Counted from the first letter of the stretch, positions 7,504 to 55,083 are shown. The stretch: 64,000 bases of DNA from an uncultured Acidobacteriaceae bacterium (GCA_963701935.1 CAVPBT010000005.1:189098-253097), one strand, 5' to 3'. The notes: generated from the sequence alone by a model not told the origin. Program-made: numbers and translations.

Positions 7504-7601
7504 TTCTCATCGAAACATGGCGCTTCGACTGGCGTCAAATGATGTCTTCTTCAGACGCTCGGGCTTTGACTTTTTCTCATGCCCTTCTTAACGTAGTTCA
7601 A

Positions 7602-8267
7602 ATGCCTGCTTACTTTACTCCAGAGCTTTTCCAGTTTCTCACCCGCCTCAAGCGTAACAACAAGCGCGAATGGTTCCAGGCGCATCAGGAAGAATGGGAA
7701 GGTGATGTACGCCAACCGGTGCTGCGATTCATCACGGACTTCGCCGCACCCCTATATGAGATCTCGCCCTATCTGGTCGCTGACCCGCGCCCTTCTCGCG
7801 GCTCCATGTTCCGCATCTACCGCGACACGCGATTCTCCCATGACAAGCACCCCTACAAAACGCACGTCGCCATGCGTTTCTCCCATCGCGGCAAAGATGT
7901 TCATTCGCCCGGTTTCTATCTTCATTTTGAGCCTGGCGGATGCTTCGCCGCTTCCGGTCTCTGGCATCCGGAGCCACCCACTCTGCTGAAAGTACGCAAC
8001 GCGATAGTGTCAACACCAAAGGAATGGCGCGCCGTCCACAAGCTTCTCAACTGGGACGACGCCAGCAAACTCAGCCGGGCGCCGCGCGGCTTCCCCGCCG
8101 ATCACGAATTCGTAGAGGATCTTAAGCTGCGCGATCTCGGCACCGCCGTAAACTTCACGGACCGGGAAGTGTGCAGCCCGAAGTTCATGGCGATCTTCGT
8201 TCAGGCGTGCCGCAAAATGTCCCCGGTCGCCGCGTTCCTCAGCCGCGCAGTTGGACTCAAATTTTAG
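7602..8267 (+). CDS. DUF2461 (TIGR02453) family protein
   Basis: I chose the ATG at 7602; the longer ORF-track frame from 7371 overlaps hrpB. The segments ...FQFLTRLKRNNKREWFQAH...FRIYRDTRFS...PGFYLHF... form the family signature. Confidence 0.8.
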   Translation: MPAYFTPELFQFLTRLKRNNKREWFQAHQEEWEGDVRQPVLRFITDFAAPLYEISPYLVADPRPSRGSMFRIYRDTRFSHDKHPYKTHVAMRFSHRGKDVHSPGFYLHFEPGGCFAASGLWHPEPPTLLKVRNAIVSTPKEWRAVHKLLNWDDASKLSRAPRGFPADHEFVEDLKLRDLGTAVNFTDREVCSPKFMAIFVQACRKMSPVAAFLSRAVGLKF

Positions 8268-20632: not shown

Positions 20633-20647
20633 TGCTGCATTGCAGCA
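20633..20647. promoter_or_regulatory. perfect palindrome TGCTGCATTGCAGCA, candidate PhaR operator (copy 1)
   Basis: This 7-1-7 palindrome has a CTGC-N3-GCAG core. It lies between the predicted -10 and the RBS of the phasin-like gene, about 70 nt from the divergent phaR start. Confidence 0.6.
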
Positions 20648-20655
20648 TCAGCTAA

Positions 20656-20684
20656 ACTATACGAAGAGAAGGGTCTTGTGTCAA
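20656..20684 (-). promoter_or_regulatory. sigma70-type promoter of phasin-like gene 1
   Basis: On the minus strand it reads TTGACA (20684-20679), a 17-nt spacer, then TATAGT (20661-20656). The operator begins 8 nt further downstream. Confidence 0.5.
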
Positions 20685-25855: not shown

Positions 25856-25870
25856 TGCTGCATTGCAGCA
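25856..25870. promoter_or_regulatory. perfect palindrome TGCTGCATTGCAGCA, candidate PhaR operator (copy 2)
   Basis: It is identical to copy 1, and the shared identity extends over the 18-mer ATTGCTGCATTGCAGCAT (25854-25871). Confidence 0.6.
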
Positions 25871-25878
25871 TTAATTGA

Positions 25879-25907
25879 AATGTAGTATCCACGCGCCTTC
25901 CAGTCAA
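25879..25907 (-). promoter_or_regulatory. sigma70-type promoter of phasin-like gene 2
   Basis: On the minus strand it reads TTGACT (25907-25902), a 17-nt spacer, then TACATT (25884-25879). The operator follows after 8 nt. Confidence 0.5.
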
Positions 25908-26030: not shown

Positions 26031-26492
26031 ATGGACAAACTTCCCGAAGTCGAAACCGCGAAAGCATTGATGACCGAGGCCACGGCGTGGTCGGTAATGA
26101 AATGGCTACGCGAAAAGAAGTTCGTGCGCAAAACGGCGGACCAGGCAAACGCCGCCCTCGACCAAGCGAGCCAGGCTGTCCGGGAACGTTGGCCGGAGCC
26201 GGTCAGATCGGCCTACGAGACGCTGGCTACTCAGACCGCCGGAACCGTCGCCGCGAGCCGCCCGAAAACCTCGTCCGCGATTGACCCAGAGGCACTGACC
26301 GTCGCCGCCAGGAGCCACGAGGCGGATGACGAAGCCTACCGCGCCCGAATGGATGCAGAAAAATCGTTCGACGACGCCGAGCGCCAACTCAGTACCAGCC
26401 TTGCTCGCGAAGGATGTCGAAAAGCAATCTACTCCTGGGAGCTACACGAGAAAGCCATTCGCAAAGCGGAAGCACTCATTCATTCGAAGTGA
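26031..26492 (+). CDS. hypothetical helical protein
   Basis: 153-aa ORF with coding-like composition. It is divergent from phasin-like gene 2. I recognise no motif. Confidence 0.55.
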   Translation: MDKLPEVETAKALMTEATAWSVMKWLREKKFVRKTADQANAALDQASQAVRERWPEPVRSAYETLATQTAGTVAASRPKTSSAIDPEALTVAARSHEADDEAYRARMDAEKSFDDAERQLSTSLAREGCRKAIYSWELHEKAIRKAEALIHSK

Positions 26493-27174
26493 CGAACCCC
26501 GGCAGGAGCCCCCGATAGATCGCCATTCCTACTACGGCGTCCACACCCATCGCATGTAATTCGTCGATCTCTTCCTGGGTCCGGATCCCCCCCGCCGCAA
26601 TGAGTTGCCGCGCCGTGGCCTTCCGCAGCGGACGAATCACCTCTTGGGGAAATCCCCCCAGCAGTCCTTCCGTTTCCACATGCGTATACAGAAACGCACT
26701 GCACCACGGTTCCAGAGCCAGGACCATTTCGAGTGGCGCCACCGCCGTCATCTTCCGCCATCCATGAATCGCCACACGCCCCCCCATCGCGTCGAGCGCG
26801 AAAACTAATCGGCCAGCACCGACCGCGTTCGACAGCCTATTCGCAAACTTCGAATCCAGATTGTCCCCGGCGAACAATGACGATCCAAGAATGACTCTGT
26901 GCGCTCCCGCCTCCAGTGCCGCCTGCGCGGCTTCCACCGACCGGATGCCCCCACCCACCTGGCACGGCAGCTGCCGAGCCAACTCCCGCACCAGTTCAAC
27001 ATTGCTCCCCGTCCCGATGGCGGCATCGAGATCAATGACTTGTACCAGCGGAAACTTCGAGAAGCGATCTACCCACGCGGCAAAGTCATCGAACTCCAGC
27101 GCCTTCTTCCGGCCCTGCACCAACTGGACGATCTTGCCGCCCATCAAATCGATCGACGGAATCAGCATGGCCAC
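26476..27174 (-). CDS. hisA: ProFAR isomerase HisA
   Basis: [19 protein letters not shown]..., ...GGGIRS... and ...[11 protein letters not shown]... fit HisA. It is the last gene of the his operon. The start may be 27174 or 27168. Confidence 0.85.
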
Positions 27175-27929
27175 CTCACCGGAATGCCCTGCGAGCCGAT
27201 TTCCTGCTTGAGGTCGGAGAGCCGGCTGAACCCATAATGAAACATCGAGGCCGCCAGCGCGGCGTCAGCATGCCCTTCACGAAAGACTTCGACAAAATGC
27301 CGCGCTCCCCCCGCGCCGCCAGAAGCGATCACAGGAATTCGAACCGAATCGGCCACGGCCCGGGTTAACTCGCATTCAAAACCAATGCCGGTGCCGTCGC
27401 GATCCATCGAGGTCAGCAGAATCTCTCCCGCCCCGCGGTCTTCCGCCTCCCGCGCCCAGCCAACCGCATCCCGTCCGCTTGGCTTGCGTCCTCCGTGGAT
27501 GTACGCTTCCCAGCCTGACGACTCGTCGCAGCGCCTGGCGTCTATTGCTACGACCACCGCCTGCGAGCCGAATCGCAGTGCAATTCGCGTAATCAGATCT
27601 GGATCAGCAAGCGCCGCGGAATTGATGCTGATCTTGTCCGCACCCGCCGAAAACACGGCCGCCGCATCTTCCAGCGTGCGAATCCCTCCGCCCACGGTGA
27701 ATGGAATAAACAGCTGACGCGCCGTCCGGCTCACCGTGTCGAGCAGCGTCGCCCGTTTCTCATGCGTCGCAGAAATATCCAGCAGCACCATTTCGTCCGC
27801 ACCCGACGCACCGTGTGCCATGGCCAGCTCAGCCGGATCCCCTGCATCGCGCAGATTCTCGAACTGCACGCCCTTCACCACGCGGCCGCCGTCCACATCC
27901 AGGCAAGCGATAATGCGTTTCGTCAGCAT
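27162..27929 (-). CDS. hisF: imidazole glycerol phosphate synthase cyclase subunit HisF
   Basis: I chose the ATG at 27929 ([23 protein letters not shown]...). The ORF-track extension overlaps hisH. A further motif is ...ASGGAG... Confidence 0.9.
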
Positions 27930-27931
27930 GC

Positions 27932-28525
27932 TCAGAGCTCGCAGAAGTTGTTCAGCATCTGCAATCCAATCCCCCCGGATTTTTCGGGATGAAACTGCAC
28001 CCCAAACAGACGATCTCTTTCCACCGCCGCGGAAAACCGCCCCCCATATTCGCAACACGCCACCGTCGCATCGGTAATCGGTGCCCGGAAAGAGTGCGTG
28101 AAATACACGAATGCTCCCGACGGCACACCTCGCAGCAGCCGTGAAGACGGATCAACCTCGAGCTGATTCCATCCCACATGCGGCGATTTCACGTTCGCCG
28201 AGAAGCGCTGGCATTCCCCGTCGAACACGCCCAGGCCGCGCGCCGACGGCGATTCCTCGCTGCCGGCAAACATCCACTGCATCCCAACACAAATGCCCAG
28301 GAACGGGATCCGCCGGGCAATCGCATCAGCAATGGCCTGCTTCAAACCCGTTCGCTCCAGAGACTCGGTCGAAGTAAAGTGACCGACGCCGGGAAGCACC
28401 ACTTTCGTAGCCGTGGCAACTTGCCCTGGATCACAAATAATGGCGCACTCCTGTCCCAACCAGTCGAACGCCTTCTTCACCGAAACCAAGTTCCCCGCGC
28501 CATAGTCGACAATCGCGATCATCAC
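27932..28525 (-). CDS. hisH: imidazole glycerol phosphate synthase glutamine amidotransferase subunit HisH
   Basis: [15 protein letters not shown]..., ...[10 protein letters not shown]... (catalytic Cys) and ...GVQFHPEKS. Confidence 0.9.
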
Positions 28526-29109
28526 AGCACTCCCTTGGTACTGGGAAGCAGCCGCGCCATGCGCCGGTCGCGCCAGCAGGCCGCGCGCAACGCCCGCGCA
28601 AACGCCTTGAATAGCGCCTCAATCTTGTGATGGCTCGATCTCCCGTACAGCGTTCGCACGTGAACATTGGCCCGCGCCCCTCGCGCGAAGCCCTCGAAGA
28701 AGTCGAACACAAGTTCGGCCTGCAGATCACCGACCAGCCGCGACCGCACCTTGGTATCCACGACCGCTGCCGTGCGTCCGCAGAAATCCACCGCGGCCAT
28801 GCCCATCGTCTCGTCCATCGGCATCAGGAAATAACCGGCCCGCAGAATGCCGCGTTTGCTGCCCAGTGCCTTGTCAAATGCCTGTCCGAGGACGATCCCC
28901 ACATCCTCCACCGTGTGGTGCTGATCCACGTCGAGATCGCCACGAGCCTTGAGCTTCAGATCAAAGCCCCCGTGATGCGCGAACAGTTCCAGCATGTGAT
29001 CGAAGAATCGAATGCCCGTCGACACTTGGTAATGCCCGCGCCCCTCAATCGTGAGCGAGATCTGAATCTGCGTCTCCTTGCTGACGCGCTTGATGTTCCC
29101 TTTTCTCAT
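28522..29109 (-). CDS. hisB: imidazoleglycerol-phosphate dehydratase HisB (monofunctional)
   Basis: The ATG at 29109 gives [19 protein letters not shown].... It has HH motifs ([27 protein letters not shown]). Its start and stop each overlap the neighbouring gene by 4 nt. Confidence 0.9.
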
Positions 29110-30182
29110 CGTCGCGATGCTCCTTGCGCAATCCCAAGTTCGTCGCACGTCTCCTGAAGGGCGGTGAGCAACCGATCAGCATGCGCACGTGGCCCCAGCG
29201 TGATGCGCACGCATCCCTCGCACCCGTGGTCTCCCGACCGATCGCGAACCAGAATGCCGCGACGCCTCATATGCTCCACAAACGAAGTCGCCGCATCCAC
29301 GCGCGCCAGAACGAAGTTCGCCTGACTGGGCCAGAACTGAATTCCCATGCCACCGAGAACCTGCTCTAGCCGCGCCCGCGACTCCCAAACCTTACTCACA
29401 TATTCATGGATAAAGTCCTGATCGCCGAGCGCCTCCGGCAGACAAGCCAGCGCGACCGCGTTCACGTTGTAAGGTGAACTGACCCGCCGTACCGCCCGCA
29501 TCTGTTCCGCGTCGCCCATCAACGCGCCAACGCGCAGCCCCGCCATCCCGTATGCCTTGGAGAACGTCCTCGCCACAAAGAGATTCGGGAACTCGTTGCG
29601 CATCGGCAGCATGCTGTGACCGTAGAACTCGAAGTATGCTTCATCCACAAGTACCGCTGCACCTGTGGCGGCCTGAGCGATTCTCCGCAAATCTTCCGGC
29701 GGCGCAACCGTTCCCGTCGGATTATTCGGATTCGCCATGGCGACCAGCCGCGTGCGCGGCGTAATGCGCTTGCACACTTCGTCGCCAGGAAAAATGAAGT
29801 CCTCGCCAGCTGGAATGCTGATGACCTTCGCTCCCGCCGCCATCCCATAAATCCGGTACATCGAATATGTGGGCACCACGATCAGCGCCTCGTCGCCGGG
29901 CTCAAGGTAGGTTTCACACAGCAAATGAATCGCTTCATCCACACCGTTGGTCAGCAGCAACTCGCCCGCTGCAACGCCCAGCACGTCTGCCACGGCCGCC
30001 TCTACCGGCTCGCGCTCGGGATAGCGGGCAAGTTCTTCCGTGCCCAAGCGCCGCAAACGCTCCAGCACTCGCGGGGAGCAACCCACGGTGTTTTCGTTGA
30101 AATCCAATCGCAGCCCATCCCGCCCCGCAAGCGGCGGGTGATACAAAGGCAGCGTGCGCACCGCTTCTCGCGGACTAAGCAT
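29106..30182 (-). CDS. hisC: histidinol-phosphate aminotransferase HisC
   Basis: 358 aa, class-II aminotransferase. ...[15 protein letters not shown]... carries the PLP lysine. Confidence 0.9.
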
Positions 30183-31420
30183 GCTCGCACCTCACCCGGA
30201 CCGATTGCGCGTGCGCCGGAAGCCCCTCAGCGGTCGCGAGGCATTCGATAGCAGGAGCAATCCCGCGCAGCCCCTCGCCGGAAAGTCGCTGCACCGTAAT
30301 CACCTTCACAAAATCGGTCACGCTGAGACCTCCGCGAAATCGAGCCTGCCCCGAAGTCGGCAACACGTGATTGGGCCCGGACGCATAGTCGCCCGCCGCC
30401 TGCGCCGAATAGTCCCCCACAAACACGGAGCCCGCATTCTGAATGAACGGTAAGTCGTCCTCCGCAACGGTGATATGTTCAGGTGCAAGCCGATTCGCCC
30501 AATCCCGAGCCTGCTCTCGTGACTGCGCGACCAGTATTGCGCCCCGCGCTCGCAGCGACGCCTGAGCCGTTGAATTCCCTTTCGCAAGTTCCACCGCGCT
30601 GGCCTTCACCGACCTCGCCAGCCTGGGAGAAGTCGTGATCAAGACCGACAGCGTCTCCGGATCATGCTCAGCCTGCGCCACCAGATCCGCCGCGATGAAC
30701 TCCGGCACACCCGAGTGGCTCAGAACCACGGCTTCCGTAGGCCCTGCCAGAAAATCAATCGCGCAATCGAACGCGACCAGCTTCTTCGCCACCGTAACGT
30801 AGGAGTTTCCCGGCCCCACAATCTTGTCCACCCGCGGAATGCTGCTGGTTCCATACGCCAACGCGGCGACGGCCTGCGCACCCCCCACACGGTAGAACTC
30901 GCGCACACCCAGCATCGCGGCCGCAGCCAGGACTTCCGTCGATGGCTTGGGTGATACCACGCGGATGTTTTTCACCGCCGCAACCTGCGCGGGAATCACC
31001 GTCATCAGCAGAGTCGAAACCAGCGGATAGCGCCCGCCCGGCACGTAGCATCCCACCGACTCCAGAGGCCGCACGATTTGCCCAAGAGAAATCCCGTCGC
31101 GAGTCCGCATCCAGTCTCCGGGCTTTTGCCATTCACAAAAACGGCGGATATTCTGAGCAGCCTGCCGCAGCGATTTGCGCAACTTCGGAGAAATCGTCCG
31201 CAGCGCCGCCGCCATTTCTTCCTCCGACACTCGCAGAGGCTGTTTCTTTCTCAAGCCTATCCCATCGCTCCGCATACCGTCGAAGCGCTCGGTCCCCGCC
31301 CCGTCGCATGCTTTCCACGATGCGCCGCACTCGCGGTTCCAGTCGTTCAAGGTCCGCGCCTCGTGCGGCAAGACGATCCACCAGCGCAGCAGCCTTGCGA
31401 CCCGAAACGATCCGCATCAC
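30175..31420 (-). pseudogene. hisD: histidinol dehydrogenase HisD, one frameshift as sequenced
   Basis: The N-terminus MMRIVSGRK...RRYAERWD lies in the 31420 frame. The remainder, ...GLRKKQPLRVSEEEM... to the stop at 30175, lies in another frame. Removing base ~31258 restores RWDGLRKKQ. The total length is 1246 nt (3n+1). Confidence 0.85.
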
Positions 31421-32286
31421 AGCACCACCTTGTTCAGCGGATACTCAACGATGCCCTGCGCCCTCGCCTCTTTCAGCCGCGGAATCACATCCCACGCTGC
31501 TCCCTCATCGATCACCGTATTGACCGCAAGCCACTGCTCATCACTCAAATGAGATATCGTCGGCTTCTGTAGGGCCGGCAGCACAGCCAGCACCGCCGCC
31601 AAGTCCTCCTTCTTCACATTCAGCATCAACCCCACGCGGTCCTGGGCTTCCATCGCCCCCTGCAGCATCAGAGCCAGGTTGTCGATCTTCCGTCGTTTTT
31701 CTCGATCACCATACGACGCCTTATTCGCGATCAACTGCGTGTTCGACTCCAGAACCGTCTCCAGAATGCGCAGGCGGTTGGCCTTGAGCGAACTTCCCGT
31801 CTCGGTCACTTCGACAATCGCATCGGCCAGCATGGGAGGCTTCACCTCCGTCGCGCCCCAGGAAAACTCTACCCGCACCTCGACGCCTTTCCTGCAGAAG
31901 TAGTCGCGCGTCACCTTCACCAGTTCGGTCGCGATGATTCTTCCGGTCAGTTCTTCCGCCCGCTGCACCCGAGAATCGTCCGGCACGGCCAGCACCCATC
32001 GCACCTTTCCGCGGCTGCGCTTGGCATAAATCAAATCGCTCACCGTGGCAACTTCCAGTCCGCTCTCAATCACCCAGTCGAGCCCGGTCAGCCCCGCGTC
32101 GATGGCCCCGTGCTCCACATAGCGGGCCATCTCCTGGGCTCGGATTAACATGCAATCGATCTCCGGATCGGCCGTGCTCGCGAAGTAGGACCGCCCGTTC
32201 GTATATGCAGGGAGCCCGGCTCGCGCAAATAGCTGCAACGTTGCCTCCTGCAAACTTCCTTTGGGGATTCCGATGCGGAGTTTCAT
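31417..32286 (-). CDS. hisG: ATP phosphoribosyltransferase HisG (long form)
   Basis: The ATG at 32286 ([20 protein letters not shown]...) forms an ATGA overlap with the hisI stop. The hisG stop overlaps the hisD ATG. Confidence 0.9.
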
Positions 32287-32648
32287 CGTGCCTCCTCCGG
32301 CAGGCTCGCAGTTTCCATGGCCCGTGCAGGAATCGACTCCGTGAAGCACGAGCGTGTCCCCCGATGACAGACGACTCCCGCTCCCTCCACCTCAACCTGC
32401 AACAACAGGGTGTCGCGGTCACAGTCCGTGCAAACCGAGATGACTCGCAGCCGGTTTCCCGAACTCTCACCCTTCATCCAGAGCTGCTGCCGCGTCCGGC
32501 TGAAGAAAGTCACATACCCACCCTCCAGCGTCCGCTCCAGCGCCTGACGATTCATAAAGCCCACCATCAGCACCTCGCCGTCCGTTGAGTCCTGAACCAC
32601 GGCCGGAAGCAGCCCGCCCAACTTCTCGAAATCAAATTCCGCATTCAT
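32283..32648 (-). CDS. hisI: phosphoribosyl-AMP cyclohydrolase HisI (monofunctional)
   Basis: 121 aa. Motifs are ...LPAVVQD...[10 protein letters not shown]..., ...[18 protein letters not shown]... and ...[13 protein letters not shown].... Confidence 0.85.
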
Positions 32649-32670
32649 ATCCGTACTTCCTCTCTCGGAG

Positions 32671-32707
32671 AAACAAAAAGCCCGCTGAGCGTTTCGCGTC
32701 AGCGGGC
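32671..32707 (-). terminator. intrinsic terminator of the his attenuator
   Basis: On the minus strand it reads GCCCGCTGA-C-GCG AAA CGC-TCAGCGGGC followed by TTTTTGTTT. It lies 38 nt after the leader stop and 22 nt before the hisI ATG. Confidence 0.7.
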
Positions 32708-32745
32708 CGGAACTCCTGATAAGTGCTGTTATCTACTCTGCAATC

Positions 32746-32814
32746 TCAGGTGCACATCGCCGCCGCCGCGCTATGCGCGTGGTGGTGATGGCGGTGATGA
32801 AAATGAGACTGCAT
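32746..32814 (-). CDS. his operon leader peptide (hisL-like), MQSHFHHRHHHHAHSAAAAMCT
   Basis: This 22-codon minus-strand ORF is too short for the ORF track. Eight of codons 4-14 are His (CAT/CAC). It sits directly upstream of the terminator hairpin and hisI. Confidence 0.65.
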   Translation of the reverse strand: MQSHFHHRHHHHAHSAAAAMCT

Positions 32815-32823
32815 CTGCGAACT

Positions 32824-32852
32824 AGACTACGAGGGCGATCCCTTCCGGTCAA
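32824..32852 (-). promoter_or_regulatory. candidate sigma70-type promoter of the his leader
   Basis: On the minus strand it reads TTGACC (32852-32847), a 17-nt spacer, then TAGTCT (32829-32824). Only 9 nt separate the -10 from the leader ATG. Confidence 0.4.
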
Positions 32853-32991
32853 TGCATTTAATCCCTTCGTCTGAGCAATTTTTCAAATGCCATCAATCCA
32901 TATTTTGGATGCTTGCCTAGAATGCCCCGACCACTCCTGATACGATTCCCCTTCACCGTTGGCCTTGATCTCCAGTGTTCCAGGAGTCTTC

Positions 32992-35900
32992 ATGAATACA
33001 TCATCTCGCGCGACTCGATTTGTGATCTTGTCTGTGATGATCGCGATTGTTCTCGTCGCTACTGCAGTTCCCGCTTACTCCCAGACAATCGTCACCAACG
33101 ATCCTCCTTTCTACGGCCCGTTCAATGCAATCTTCATTCCCGACGGCGATGGCCTGAGGAAGCCTCTTGCAAAGACTGACTCGGTCCTGCGCGCGGAGTC
33201 CCCATGGTCGCTCTACGCCTGGGTGAAGCCGTCCGAGACGACGCACGCGCTCACTCTGATAGCAGGTTTCGGAGACCCCGCGGACGAGTTCTCCAGGTAT
33301 CTCGCGCTCGATGGTGACCACCTGAGTCTCTGGATGGGCAAAGACAACAGCCTCTCCGGCCCCGCCACGCTAGCCCCCGGAAAATGGCACTTCCTCGCCG
33401 TGACGTTTAACGGCGAAGAATTCCATCTCTACAGCGACGGCGCGCAGATCGCCAGTGGCCAAACGGACTTGGGAAGCGTCGGCCCGATCCTCGAGATGGC
33501 CCCTCCTTCGCCTCCCTCCCAAACCTGGCGTCACTTTGGCGGAACCATCGCTTCTTTGACGCTGGTGAGAAGCGCTCTGAGCAGCGACGAACTCAAGCAG
33601 CTCTTCCAAACGCCAGCCGACTTCGCAAACATCGAATTCGAAGAAGGCTCGAAGCCGTGGCCCGTCCAAACGCGAGGCCAGGCCGGATACCGTGCCCCTC
33701 AGGATCCCGCGACCATGCCACGCAGCAAAGCCCCATTCTCGAGTCCAGTTGCTAAGACTCCACCGACCCAGGAGATTCTTCAGGCGAATGGCGAGGGCCA
33801 CTGGACTCTGGCGGCAGGCTGGCACATGACTCCCTCGCCAAAAGTAACTGCCGACGGCGCAGCTATCTCGCAAGTCAGATTCAACGCCAAAGACTGGATG
33901 TACGCGACCGTTCCTGGAACCGTGCTCACCACGATGGTCGATCGCGGAATCTATCCCGACCCCGACTACGGTCTCAACAACCTCGCCATCCCCGAAAGCC
34001 TGAACAAACAGGACTACTGGTACCGCATAGAATTCCACGCGCCCAAAGCCGCACGCGGACGCCGCCTCACTCTGACCTTCGAAGGCATCAACTACCACGC
34101 AACCGTGTGGCTCAACGGTCAGCAGCTTGGCATGCTCACCGGAGCCTTCATCCGCGGCGTCTTTGACGTAACCGGCGCCGTCAAGACCGACGGAGTGAAT
34201 GTTCTCGCCGTACGCGTCTCTCCTCCTCCGCATCCTGGCATTCCACAGGAACAATCCGTCAAAGGTGGGCCCGGCGAAAACGGCGGCATGATGTGTCTCG
34301 ATGGTCCCACGTTCGTCGCCACCGAAGGCTGGGATTGGATTCCTGCCGTCCGCGACCGCGACACCGGCATCTGGCAGCCGGTCACGCTGACCGCAACCAG
34401 CACGGTGAAAATCGGCGACGCGCAAGTCGTAACTTCTCTCCCCTTGCCCGACACCTCTCGCGCCGACGTCGAAATCACAGTACCGCTCGAGAATATTTCG
34501 ACTTCACCCGTGACCGGCAGCCTGAAGGCCTCCTTCGGCGACGTCGTCGTGACTAAACAACTCACGCTTCCTCCGGGCAAGAGTTCGGTGAAATTAGCGC
34601 CCGCGGAGTTCGCTCAGTTAACGGTCAAGCACCCGCGCCTCTGGTGGCCGAACGGCTATGGCAAGCCCGATCTGTATACCCTTCACCTCGCCTTCTCCGA
34701 GGGAACCACCGAGTCCGACGCCCAAGACGTGCGCTTTGGAATTCGCGAGATAACCTACGAGTTAAGCCTCCTCGACAGCACCGGCCACCTCCGCCGTTTG
34801 GAGTACTCACCAACCACAGCGAGGCTCAAGGCAGAGCCAGTCGTCGACGTCCGCCACCAAGGCATGCGCGAAATTCCCGCGGCGGATCCCTTCCCGGCAA
34901 GCTTCCCTCCAGAATGGAGAGAAGGATGGAAGTCATGGGTCGCTTCACTCGCGCCTGGCGGCGAATCCTCGCCATCGGTCAAGATGCTCGACGACACGAA
35001 AACTTCCCCCTACCTCGTCATCAAGGTCAACGGAGTACGCATCGCAGCCCGCGGCGGCAACTGGGGCATGGATGACTCCCGCAAACGTGTCTCCCGCGAG
35101 CATCTCGAACCTTATTTCCGCCTACACCGCGACGCCAACCTCAACATCATCCGCAACTGGGTCGGCCAAAACACGGAGCAGACTTTCTACGATTTAGCCG
35201 ACGAGTACGGACTCATGGTTTGGAACGATTTCTGGGAGTCCACGCAGAACTACAACGTCGAAGCCCAGAACCCAGCGCTATTCCTCGACAACGCCCGCGA
35301 CACTATCCTGCGCTTTCGCAATCATCCTTCGATCGTGGTATGGTGCGGCCGCAACGAAGGCGTGCCTCAGCCCGTCATCAATGAGGGTCTCATCGACTTG
35401 ATCACCTCTCTGGACGGCACGCGCTACTACTTTCCGAGTTCCAACCAAGTCAACCTGCAAAACAGCGGCCCGTATAAATACATGGACCCAACTCTCTACT
35501 ACACCACGCTGAACCACGGCTTCTCCGTGGAAACCGGAACTCCGTCATTCTCGACGCTGGAGTCTTTCCGCGCCTGGATTCCGAAAGAAGATCAATGGCC
35601 CATCGGCGACGACTGGGCCTACCACGACTGGCATCAAAGCGGAAACGGCGACATGGCTCCCTTCATGGCGCAAATGCAAGCCGAGTTTGGCGCACCCGTG
35701 AGCCTCGAGGATTTCGAGCGCAAGGCGCAGATGCTCAACTATGTTGATCATCGCGCGATCTTCGAAGGCATGAACGCCCACCTCTGGTCACCCAACAGCG
35801 GACGTCTTCTGTGGATGACCCAGCCCGCATGGCCGAGCAACACCTGGCAAATCCTGAACGCCGATTACGACACACAGTCTTCTTTCTACGCTGTCAAGAA

Positions 35901-52009: not shown

Positions 52010-53348
52010 CTAGTCCTTAACAGCTTTGTCCGTAATCTCGAGCCCCTTGTCGATAATGGCAAACGCCTCGCGCAGTTGCTGCTCGTTAATGCACAGCGGA
52101 GGATTCGTGTAGAACGAATTCCAGCGCACGATGGTGTAAAGCCCCTGCTCGCGGAAGAAACGCCCGAGCGCTCCCATCTCTTCGGACGTCCCATTGAACG
52201 GAGCCATCGGCTGCCGCGTCTTCCGGCTGCGCACTAACTCCACAATGCCGAATAGCCCGATCGACCGCACCGCTCCGACCGACGGATGTTTCGCCTGCAA
52301 ATCCGCGCCCAGTTGCTTCATGATCGCGCCCATCTTCCGTGCGTTCTCGATGAGATGATCTTCTTCATAGACGCGAATTGTGGCCAGCGCTGCCGCGCAT
52401 CCCATGGGATGCGAGTTGTAAGTCAGCCCTCCGTAAAACACCTTGTCCTGGAAGTGCTGCGCAATGTGATGCCGCATTCCCACCGCACCCAAAGGAAGAT
52501 AGCTCGCCGTCAGTCCCTTTGGCCATGCAGATCAGGTCAGGTACAACTTTCCAGTGATCGATGGCAAACCACTCGCCCGTGCGTCCAAATCCCGCCATGA
52601 CTTCATCGGCGATCATCAGAATGCCATACTTGTCGCACAGCTTGCGCACACCCTCGAGATATCCATCCGGAGGAATGAGAATGCCGTTGGTCCCAACGAC
52701 GGTCTCCAAGATGAAGGCAGCGATCGTATGCGGTCCCTCGAGCTGAATCGTCTCCTCGATCATGGCGAGCGAAGTCTCGGCCGACTCCCAACCGCGCTCG
52801 ATGCCGTGATAAGGATCCAGCACACGCACTACGCCAGGAATGCCCGGTTCTGCGGCCCAGCGCCGCGGATCGCCCGTCAGTGAGATCGCGCCCGCAGTCG
52901 CGCCGTGATACGAACGGTAGCGAGCCATGATCTTGTGCCGTCCGGTGAAGAAGCGCGCGATCTTGATCGCGTTCTCATTGGCCTCAGCTCCGCCATTCGT
53001 GAAGAAGAACGTATCGATATCGCCCGGCGTAATCTCGGCGAGTTTCGCGCCCAGCCGCGCCCGCGGCTCGGTCGCCATGAACGGATTCGCATAGGCCAGC
53101 GTCTGTGCCTGCTCGTGAATCGCAGCGATCACACGCTCGTCCCCATGTCCAATGTTTACCGACATCAACTGGCTGTTGAAGTCGATGAAGCGCTTGCCCT
53201 CAGGCGTCCAAAAGTAGATGCCCTTAGCTTTGGCAACCGGAATGGGATCGACCTTCGACTGCGCCGACCACTCAAACAGCGTGTGTTTCTTGGTGAGATC
53301 AACGATTTCCTGACCGGTCATCGAGGGAGTTGCAAGAGTAGTAGTCAT
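52010..53348 (-). pseudogene. class-III (omega-amino acid:pyruvate-type) aminotransferase, one frameshift as sequenced
   Basis: The ATG at 53348 gives [16 protein letters not shown].... Motifs are ...[10 protein letters not shown]... and ...[15 protein letters not shown].... The frame breaks right after the PLP-lysine motif. Removing one base at 52514-52517 gives [19 protein letters not shown]. The total length is 1339 nt (3n+1). Confidence 0.85.
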
Positions 53349-53494
53349 AGATTCCTCAGATATGAAGTCGATTTGCCACAGAGTCATTGAGTGACACGGA
53401 TCGAATGCTAGGGCGTGATTCTTACGGCACCTAACTCGTATGAGCCATCTTGTCCTTGCATTTCTCCGTGACTCTGTGTCTCCGTGGCTCGATT

Positions 53495-54986
53495 CTAAAA
53501 CTTGCGGCTGTGCTCTTTCGCCCAGCGTTCGACCACAACTTTCTTGTCGGTGTAGAACTCGATGGCAGTCGCGGCCCTGGCCGTGCAGATCGCCGAAGAA
53601 GCTGTTCTTCCATCCGCTAAACGGAAAGTAAGCCATGGGCGCGGCGACTCCGATGTTGATGCCGATATTGCCCGCAGGCGCTTCGTAGCGGAAGCGGCGC
53701 GCGGCCGAGCCGCTCGACGTAAACAGCGACGCCTGGTTGCCATACGCGCTGCGTTCGAGGAATGCCAGAGCTTCGTCCATGTTGTCGGCATGAACGAGGC
53801 TGAGCACCGGACCAAAGATCTCGGTATCGGCAATGTCGCTCGTCGGCGGAACCGCGTCGAGAATCGTGGGCTTCACGAAGTTGCCGGATTCGTATTTCGG
53901 AATCTTCGAGTTGCGCCCGTCGAGCAGGACTTTGGCGCCTTGCTTCTCTCCCAGCCCGATCAGCGATTCCACGCGTTCCTTGCTCTGCGGCGTGATCACC
54001 GGTCCCATCTGCACACCGTCCTCAAGACCGTTGCCGACTTTCAGTTTCGAAGCCGCCTCGGCAATCGAGTCGCGGAACGTCCTCTGCGCCTCGCCGATCG
54101 TGATCGCAGTTGAGACAGCGAGACAACGCTGTCCCGCGCAGCCGAAGGCGCTGTCGCTGATGATCTGCGTCGCCATCGGCATGTCCGCATCCGGCAGAAC
54201 GACAACGTGATTCTTCGCGCCGCCCTGACACTGGCAGCGCTTCCCTTGCTCGCCCGAGCGCGCGTAGATGTAGCGCGCCACTGGAGTCGATCCGACGAAG
54301 CTGATCGCGCGCACCTTCGGATGGTCGATGAGCGCATCAACAACGGCCTTGCCGCCGTTCACCAGATTCACGACGCCCTTCGGCAATCCAGTCTTCGCCA
54401 GCAGTTCATACACGTAGCGCATGGTCAGCGGCACGCGCTCGCTCGGCTTCAGGATGAACGTGTTCCCCGTGGCGATGGCGTAAGGCAGATACCAGAACGC
54501 GATCATGCCGGGAAAGTTGAAGGGCACGATCGCGGCGGTAACGCCGAGCGGTTGCCGGATCATCATCTCGTCGATGCCGCGGGCAACATCTTCGAGGTTG
54601 TAGCCCTGCATCATCATCGGAATGCCGCAGGCTACTTCCACATTCTCGATGGCGCGGCGCATCTCGGCCTTGGCTTCGGTGAAGGTCTTGCCGTTCTCGG
54701 TGGTGATGATGCGGGCGATGTCGTCGATGTGCTCTTCGAGCAGCATCTTCAGCTTGAACAGCGGCTGGATGCGGTCTTCAGGCGGAGTGCGCCGCCATTC
54801 CGGAAACGCTGCGGCCGCGGCTTCTACAGCTGTGGCCACTTCGGCCGCGTCGGCGAGCGGAACGCTGGCCAGGACTTCGCCCGTAGCTGGATTGACGACG
54901 TCGCGCCATTCGGAGGAGCGCGAGTCGGTCCATTGGCCGTTGATGTAGTTCGTGAGCTTGGTGACGGGAGGTGCGGCTACGCTCAT
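53495..54986 (-). pseudogene. mmsA: CoA-acylating methylmalonate/malonate-semialdehyde dehydrogenase, one frameshift as sequenced
   Basis: The ATG at 54986 gives [19 protein letters not shown].... A further motif is ...[12 protein letters not shown].... Removing base 53567 restores ...[24 protein letters not shown]... to the stop at 53495. The total length is 1492 nt (3n+1). Confidence 0.85.
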
Positions 54987-55083
54987 GATAATGCCTCTGC
55001 TATCGCGAAGAGTTTCGTGCGCGGGAAGTCGCACATGTCACGCGTGCGAATTCCCTCTGACTCCAACTAATGATACCGCTATA

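Follow-up and report, generated by a model that had tools for sequence, protein, structure and literature searches.

The question raised by this locus is how an uncultured Acidobacteriaceae bacterium controls its histidine operon, as a short open reading frame (ORF) crowded with histidine codons and a strong hairpin lie directly upstream of the first gene, hisI. An earlier note on this DNA had proposed a classical His leader-peptide attenuator upstream of hisI. We examined the whole 64,000-nucleotide stretch of DNA containing the locus (the window) together with related loci from genomes and metagenomes. The ORF and three mutually exclusive RNA pairings are conserved in the relatives, and we consider it very likely that a ribosome-mediated transcription attenuator ties expression of the hisIGDCBH(A/F) operon to charged tRNA-His. 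The element has the following parts, given in the order of transcription.

32847-32852, minus strand: predicted -35 hexamer TTGACC of the his-operon promoter, TTGACn being conserved at this position
32824-32829, minus strand: predicted -10 hexamer TAGTCT (TAnnnT), separated by 17 nt from the -35 and by 9 nt from the leader ATG, in a conserved geometry
32746-32814, minus strand: leader-peptide ORF from the ATG at 32814 to the TGA at 32748-32746, 22 codons plus TGA, MQSHFHHRHHHHAHSAAAAMCT, conserved in relatives
32739-32813, minus strand: P1, a hairpin of the whole ORF (leader nt 2-76), predicted fold of -37.0 kcal/mol in the window
32773-32805, minus strand: regulatory His-codon tract, codons 4-14 (leader nt 10-42), or region 1, the 5' strand of the anti-antiterminator
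32758-32771, minus strand: region 2, the box GCGCGGCGGCGGCG (also given as GCGCGnCGGCGG), leader nt 44-57, near-invariant including third codon positions
32696-32709, minus strand: region 3, the 5' arm of the terminator plus CGC (leader nt 106-119), the partner of region 2 in the antiterminator
32671-32707, minus strand: intrinsic terminator with a conserved stem GCCCGCUGA(C)GCG-AAA-CGCUCAGCGGGC at 32707-32680 and the U-tract UUUUUGUUU at 32679-32671
32656-32664, minus strand: Shine-Dalgarno-like GAGAGGAAG of hisI
26476-32648, minus strand: predicted regulated operon hisI, hisG, hisD, hisC, hisB, hisH and two His_biosynth genes (hisA/hisF), from Pfam matches
32283-32648, minus strand: hisI, from its Pfam match
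31417-32286, minus strand: hisG, long form, from its Pfam match

The leader ORF carries His at codons 4, 6, 7, 9, 10, 11, 12 and 14, which is 8 His per 11 codons. This density occurs once in the 64-kb window, and 50 shuffles reached a maximum of 5-6. The stop codon and the hairpin are 38 nt apart, and another 22 nt separate the end of the U-tract from the hisI ATG at 32648. The earlier note had placed the ORF between ATG 32814 and TGA 32746 with 8 His among codons 4-14, the hairpin 38 nt past it with its tract running to 32671, the hisI ribosome-binding site and ATG 22 nt further on, and a TTGACC-17-TAGTCT promoter candidate 9 nt before the leader ATG; every one of these elements was found where it had been described. 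As a whole, the 186-nt leader has a predicted fold of -70.8 kcal/mol (z = -4.2). A second His-dense stretch near 54729 was dismissed, being a non-coding frame of a large gene.

Downstream, the 121-aa hisI product is phosphoribosyl-AMP cyclohydrolase (PRA-CH, HisI; Pfam E=1.7e-30), and hisI and hisG overlap by 4 nt. Upstream, the neighbouring gene encodes a GH2-family glycosidase and is in divergent orientation. As no co-directional gene precedes the hairpin, it cannot serve to terminate an upstream gene. We also observed that the hisI of this operon (26476-32648, minus strand) is monofunctional, containing PRA-CH only, and that the operon has no recognisable hisE (PRA-PH), which must therefore be located elsewhere.

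The terminator is a 12-bp G+C-rich bulged hairpin with a predicted energy of -22.7 kcal/mol (leader nt 108-135), followed by the U-tract. Its outer arms are GCCCGCUGA at 32707-32699 and UCAGCGGGC at 32688-32680; between them are a bulged C, an inner GCG/CGC stem and the AAA loop. The hairpin pattern has 1 match in the window for 0.00 expected. A generic promoter/terminator scanner run over the window did not call the terminator at 32671-32707, because the bulge in its stem is disallowed by the scanner. The 9-bp stem is identical in 59 of the 80 genome loci described below, while the remainder of a 71-row alignment differs by one substitution, and there is one occurrence per locus. The identical 9-bp stem is also found as an ordinary terminator in unrelated metagenome contigs, for example of gut and marine origin, so that the sequence of the stem alone is not diagnostic of a his attenuator. 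As an example, GCCCGCUGA...UCAGCGGGC plus a U-tract follows a gene ending in ...LHLLMVDPHIP in many gut contigs (L088, L091, L093, L095, L097, L100 and others).

We then looked at how the leader ORF behaves among relatives. A HisI scan of species-representative genomes resulted in 80 loci whose HisI is 63-89% identical, nearly all of which carry titles of Acidobacteriota MAGs from the Terriglobales order, in many cases Candidatus Sulfotelmatobacter. Looking for His-rich mini-ORFs upstream of hisI in related genomes had been put forward in the earlier note as a check, and one is present in 79 of the 79 Terriglobales loci with sufficient upstream DNA, at a density of 5-9 His in 11 codons. Peptide length is 19-28 aa (mode 22), each peptide contains 5-10 His, and the consensus is xxxHxHHRHHHHAHSATAAMCT. 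His codons vary synonymously across the loci (CAT 302, CAC 235), indels within the His-codon stretch are multiples of 3, and in 54 of 71 loci the frame closes with the UGA inside a conserved CUGAG. The synonymous changes, the 3-nt indels and the fixed position of the stop are signatures of a translated frame, and we take them as signs of translation at the level of sequence evolution. Typical Terriglobales his leaders were also seen in three loci (L012, L052 and L056) from MAGs titled Candidatus Binatus, Candidatus Aquilonibacter and Rhodanobacteraceae, where binning contamination or mislabelling is likely. A HisI search of a protein collection returned close relatives only (81-98% identity) and did not widen the taxonomic reach, and an exact look-up of the window HisI gave no matching record.

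A metagenome scan queried with the terminator stem, and aimed at finding other regulated genes, added 42 His-positive matches, including lineages whose HisI is only 44-51% identical (L085, L144, L163). Nearly all of the His-positive matches with enough downstream DNA continue into hisI-hisG. The only exceptions are one hisG-first locus (L186) and one truncated or chimeric hisI (L185), and there is thus no evidence for a wider regulon.

Each of the two exceptions deserves a description. L186 (contig Ga0209201_1008329, minus strand) belongs to a lower-G+C lineage and has the His leader MTTINQKHHHHVHHHAEALLS directly before hisG instead of hisI. It shares the 9-bp terminator stem with the other loci, and its promoter reads TTGCAT-17-TACATT-5-ATG. 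No antiterminator emerged when it was folded simply with a stalled ribosome (-7.6 kcal/mol), and this leader may be a convergent or rearranged variant. In L185 (3330-3760, plus strand) the leader and the terminator are normal, and the ORF after them starts like HisI (MNAEFDFDKMLGLIPAV) and diverges to unrelated sequence; the probable cause is a chimeric contig or disruption of hisI.

An attenuator of this type requires alternative RNA structures that exclude each other, and the earlier note had suggested folding the region for mutually exclusive antiterminator and terminator structures. Such an antiterminator exists and is conserved in place, and an anti-antiterminator pairs the His codons with the same box. 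Region 2 is therefore common to both P1 and the antiterminator, and in almost every locus the best duplex of the terminator arm is with the homologous box. Within P1, the outer stem joins the start-proximal codons to the stop-codon region CUGAGAUUGCA, the inner pairing joins the last His codons (yCAyC) to the GGCGG core of the box, and a tip hairpin CGCGC-AUA-GCGCG is stacked on top. The CAU/CAC wobble of the His codons is absorbed as G-U or G-C pairs. Across 71 sequences the inner helices (yCAyC/GGCGG) have 98.8% of alignment cells paired compared to 29-66% in slid controls, and 64 of the 71 single-sequence folds have the box paired with the His region. The outer stem occurs as GUCUCA/UGAGAU, GGCUCA/UGAGCU and CUGGCUCA/UGAGCUAG; in a per-locus test it is individually significant in only 13/71 loci, which makes it weak and supportive only.

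When a ribosome is placed on His codons 4-10, a 12-bp helix between regions 2 and 3 is predicted in the window, with a total for the stalled-ribosome fold of -28.9 to -32.3 kcal/mol compared to -22.7 for the terminator. For this antiterminator, 85% of the cells are paired across the 71 sequences against 23-49% in slid controls, and stalled-ribosome folds capture at least 6 of 10 terminator-arm nucleotides in 59 of 71 loci. Taking the window alone and a stall at the last codon of the run (codon 12), the antiterminator is no better than in shuffles, 58% of which capture the arm equally. The z-scores of the antiterminator duplex are modest in the subfamily of the window because the region is G+C-rich. 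Given these two results, the case rests on comparative evidence and not on thermodynamics.

The alignment also contains compensatory changes. Column 62 changes from G to A in 4 sequences (L038, L051, L069, L073) and both of its partners change along, column 47 from C to U in P1 and column 141 from C to U in the antiterminator. The distant lineage represented by L085 and L144 has a re-coded, perfect 13-bp antiterminator GUGUCAGUGGGCG/CGGCCCGCUGACAC. Judged from these substitutions, covariation in the leader pairings is modest but real, and invariance at most paired positions limits it. Near-invariance of both terminator arms and of region 2, down to the third codon positions, is expected under a three-way pairing constraint. 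The position of the stop codon fits the same scheme: the GGCGG core begins 16 nt before it in 43 of 71 loci, and standard footprint sizes suggest that a ribosome at the stop would mask the core.

The locus can be compared with the features by which the attenuator class is recognised. The ORF is short and rich in codons for the end product, with 8 His in 22 codons before hisIGDCBHAF; an intrinsic terminator lies between this ORF and the first structural gene; a mutually exclusive antiterminator and an anti-antiterminator overlapping the regulatory codons are both found; and the stop codon is placed such that a terminating ribosome would mask region 2, the footprint part of this last statement being inferred.

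From this anatomy we infer the start site, translation, stalling and histidine-dependent read-through as follows. From TTGACC-17-TAGTCT, transcription would start on the leader AUG itself or no more than about 3 nt from it. With such a start, the 22-codon ORF would be translated without a Shine-Dalgarno sequence. When histidine is scarce, a ribosome would stall on the His codons (leader nt 10-42) and cover region 1, leaving the box at nt 44-57 free to pair with nt 106-119; this antiterminator would permit read-through into hisI. When histidine is plentiful, the ribosome would reach the UGA, 16 nt past the GGCGG core, and mask the box while the CGCGC/GCGCG tip hairpin re-forms behind it, so that the terminator could fold and transcription would end. 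If no ribosome loads, the ORF is predicted to fold on itself as P1, burying both the 5' AUG and the box, and the terminator would form. As P1 and the terminator both form without a ribosome, the default state of the switch would be OFF. Burial of the 5' AUG by P1 would leave a ribosome only a brief co-transcriptional chance to load on the leaderless message.

One can ask whether the ORF and the hairpin are together by accident, since the same 9-bp stem serves as an ordinary terminator in the unrelated gut and marine contigs. A chance His-rich ORF beside an ordinary terminator is hardly credible and is refuted by the comparative data: the mini-ORF is conserved throughout the Terriglobales loci, the divergent upstream neighbour leaves nothing there to terminate, and shuffles never reach 8 His in 11 codons. 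Another reading is that the ORF encodes a functional His-rich micropeptide that is co-transcribed with the his genes and senses no tRNA charging. His-rich peptides are able to bind metals, so that a metal-binding role is possible in general, and the peptide consensus is fairly conserved. We nevertheless regard this as improbable: the C-terminal half is conserved at the nucleotide level including third positions, in coincidence with the strand shared by P1 and the antiterminator, distant lineages retain the His run and the RNA logic and not the peptide sequence, and the ORF is always coupled to a terminator directly before his genes. Still less probable is a switch acting on the terminator without a ribosome, for example a T-box responding to tRNA-His, a riboswitch or antitermination by a protein, even though his genes in other phyla are described as being under T-boxes and the HisR repressor (PMC9413887). 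No Rfam family, T-box included, matches at the locus at E<=10, nor does any other than Acido-Lenti-1 at gathering score across the window, and a conserved frame, synonymous His-codon variation and a fixed stop position are not expected of such RNAs. The ribosome-mediated attenuator remains the reading that we favour.

How the ribosome enters the leader is a separate question. We surveyed the promoter region by anchoring 77 genome and 41 metagenome loci on the start codon of the leader. TTGACn-17/18-TAnnnT precedes this codon in 76 of the 77 genome loci, with a spacer of 17 nt (55 loci) or 18 nt (21 loci) and a gap between the -10 and the start codon of 6-13 nt (modes 6 and 9). The same geometry is found in 39 of the 41 independent metagenome loci, one of which has TTGCAT as its -35, and is kept in the distant lineages L085/L144, L123 and L146 as well as in the hisG-first locus. 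An SD-like tetramer is found before the leader ORF in 7/77 loci compared to 68/77 for hisI; in the window no Shine-Dalgarno sequence lies upstream of the leader start codon, where the space is occupied by the -10 hexamer. The earlier note had remarked on this absence and considered that the leader peptide may be translated from a leaderless or near-leaderless mRNA. The conserved sigma-70-type promoter just upstream of the start, the lack of SD sequences and the gaps at GTG starts, all of them evidence from conservation, speak for that view, and the mRNA that carries the leader ORF is probably leaderless or nearly so. The 9-nt gap of the window predicts a 5' UTR of about 0-3 nt, not one of strictly zero length.

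It is conceivable that the attenuator is the same and its message is not leaderless. The transcript would then be longer and come from another upstream promoter, initiation would be SD-independent by other means (S1-dependent, for example), and TTGACn/TAnnnT would have another role, for example as the binding site of a regulator. The -10 of the window fits the consensus TATAAT at only 3/6 positions, which is why the scanner did not call the window promoter, and the gaps of 9-13 nt at many loci would leave a few untranslated nucleotides. Against this, a spacing of 17/18 nt and a -10 ending 5-13 nt before the start codon are retained in 115 of the 118 genome and metagenome loci combined while the flanks have diverged. 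The scanner does call the orthologous promoter (10/12) in L048 and L059, as the sole promoter-like site within 500 nt; there, the -10 ends 6 nt before the GTG/ATG. GTG starts lie 6 nt past the -10 in nearly every case, with the G at the canonical +1. Finally, the composite of this promoter and a start codon 5-10 nt on has 4 matches in the window compared to 0.17 expected, so that the geometry recurs before three other genes, where a TTGAC-N18/19-TAnnnT promoter found by pattern match lies 7 nt before the ATG of a long ORF:

7566-7604, plus strand: further promoter of this type
20646-20684, minus strand: further promoter of this type
25869-25907, minus strand: further promoter of this type

The ORFs starting at these three ATGs are 221-314 aa long. 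Read from its ATG, the one of 221 aa is a full-length DUF2461 protein, and the other two, of 260 and 314 aa, are paralogous and both start with MLQCSN. Start codons close behind a promoter thus look habitual in the genome to which the window belongs, which suggests that leaderless mRNAs are common there. On balance we consider a longer transcript unlikely and prefer initiation at or near the leader AUG.

A stronger version of the leaderless reading can be formulated. The sensing ORF would be truly leaderless, with its AUG or GUG at most 3 nt from the 5' end, and this arrangement would have been kept across Terriglobales and beyond, in lineages with HisI of about 50% identity and in one hisG-first operon. 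As the self-folded ORF would bury its AUG, only co-transcriptional ribosome loading would report the charging of tRNA-His, and the element would have originated independently of the proteobacterial hisL. We offer this version tentatively, as a possibility that falls somewhat short of being the expected outcome.

How does the element relate to known systems? With permissive filters, a cmscan of 32300-33200 gave no match to Rfam His_leader (RF00514) even at E<=10, and an hmmscan of the 22-aa peptide at E<=10 returned 0 families, Pfam His_leader (PF08047) included. The T-box leader RF00230 had no match at the locus (E<=10) or window-wide at gathering score. A whole-window Rfam scan at gathering score found Acido-Lenti-1 only; this RNA (RF01687, 58176-58221, plus strand, 59 bits, E=1e-10) fits the acidobacterial origin of the DNA. 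In another part of the window, a single frame of 889 aa (52365-55034, minus strand) has an aldehyde-dehydrogenase-like N-terminal part and an aminotransferase-like C-terminal part joined by a low-complexity linker; possible explanations are a fusion, the lack of a stop codon and a sequencing artefact.

The closest functional counterpart is hisL of Escherichia coli, Salmonella and other gamma-proteobacteria, where the position of the ribosome sets the pairings, as set out in PMC9413887 and PMC3896937. Both have a short ORF with a run of His codons, a terminator before the first his gene and alternative pairings, and the present element would thus work like the enterobacterial hisL attenuator outside that family; the attenuation switch itself is known. 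In contrast to hisL, the acidobacterial element has no sequence or structure homology to RF00514 or PF08047, its first gene is hisI and not hisG, its His run is interrupted (HxHHRHHHHAH, compared to 7 consecutive His in hisL), and its promoter abuts the start codon with no SD.

Candidate His leader peptides have been proposed in Firmicutes for hisZ/hisS paralogues of the Bacillus cereus group and in Peptostreptococcaceae and Erysipelotrichales (in the sections of PMC2965389 and PMC9413887 dealing with them). As described there, these candidates are, like ours, lineage-specific finds of comparative genomics with the same logic and no RF00514 match, and unlike ours they belong to another phylum, have other sequences and regulated genes and contain 3-5 consecutive His codons. 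A leaderless arrangement was not found reported for them in those sections.

The leaderless feature, conserved here, has precedent elsewhere. The ilvB leader peptide of Corynebacterium glutamicum is made without a ribosome-binding site (Morbach et al., as cited in PMC4046766), and ilvBNC, trp and leuA of this species are classical amino-acid attenuators with a leader peptide lacking a ribosome-binding site, as here. They differ in being actinobacterial and in responding to other amino acids, the his genes of C. glutamicum reportedly having T-box-type control or none. The mycobacterial polycysteine leaderless sORFs (bioRxiv 10.1101/834739) are sensory ORFs with a 5' AUG/GUG that control the downstream operon by ribosome occupancy. 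They share with the present element a leaderless ORF rich in the codon of the end product. The mycobacterial case studied senses Cys and controls translation through sequestration of the SD of the following gene, whereas the present element would sense His and has a canonical intrinsic terminator.

For Acidobacteria or Terriglobia, full-text literature searches turned up neither His attenuators nor leader peptides of this type. The earlier note had placed most of the described leader-peptide his attenuators in Enterobacteria and in a small number of other groups, and the literature searched agrees, with cases in gamma-proteobacteria, some Firmicutes and Actinobacteria and none for Acidobacteria.

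The understanding of attenuation itself is unchanged by these results, and a specialist would not be surprised by them. They are of use for annotation and for the physiology of acidobacteria, as the his operon of Terriglobales, soil and peat Acidobacteriota that are abundant and little studied, is given a concrete mode of regulation. The unannotated small ORF and its RNA form a family of about 120 sequences with a conserved promoter, three alternative helices and a terminator, which could seed a covariance model and help to annotate MAGs better. Confirmation of the leaderless start would provide further evidence, from outside Actinobacteria, that classical terminator-type attenuators can function with SD-less 5'-terminal starts. 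Should the truly leaderless reading hold, expression of the his operon would be coupled to the capacity of the cell for leaderless (70S-type) initiation as well as to histidine.
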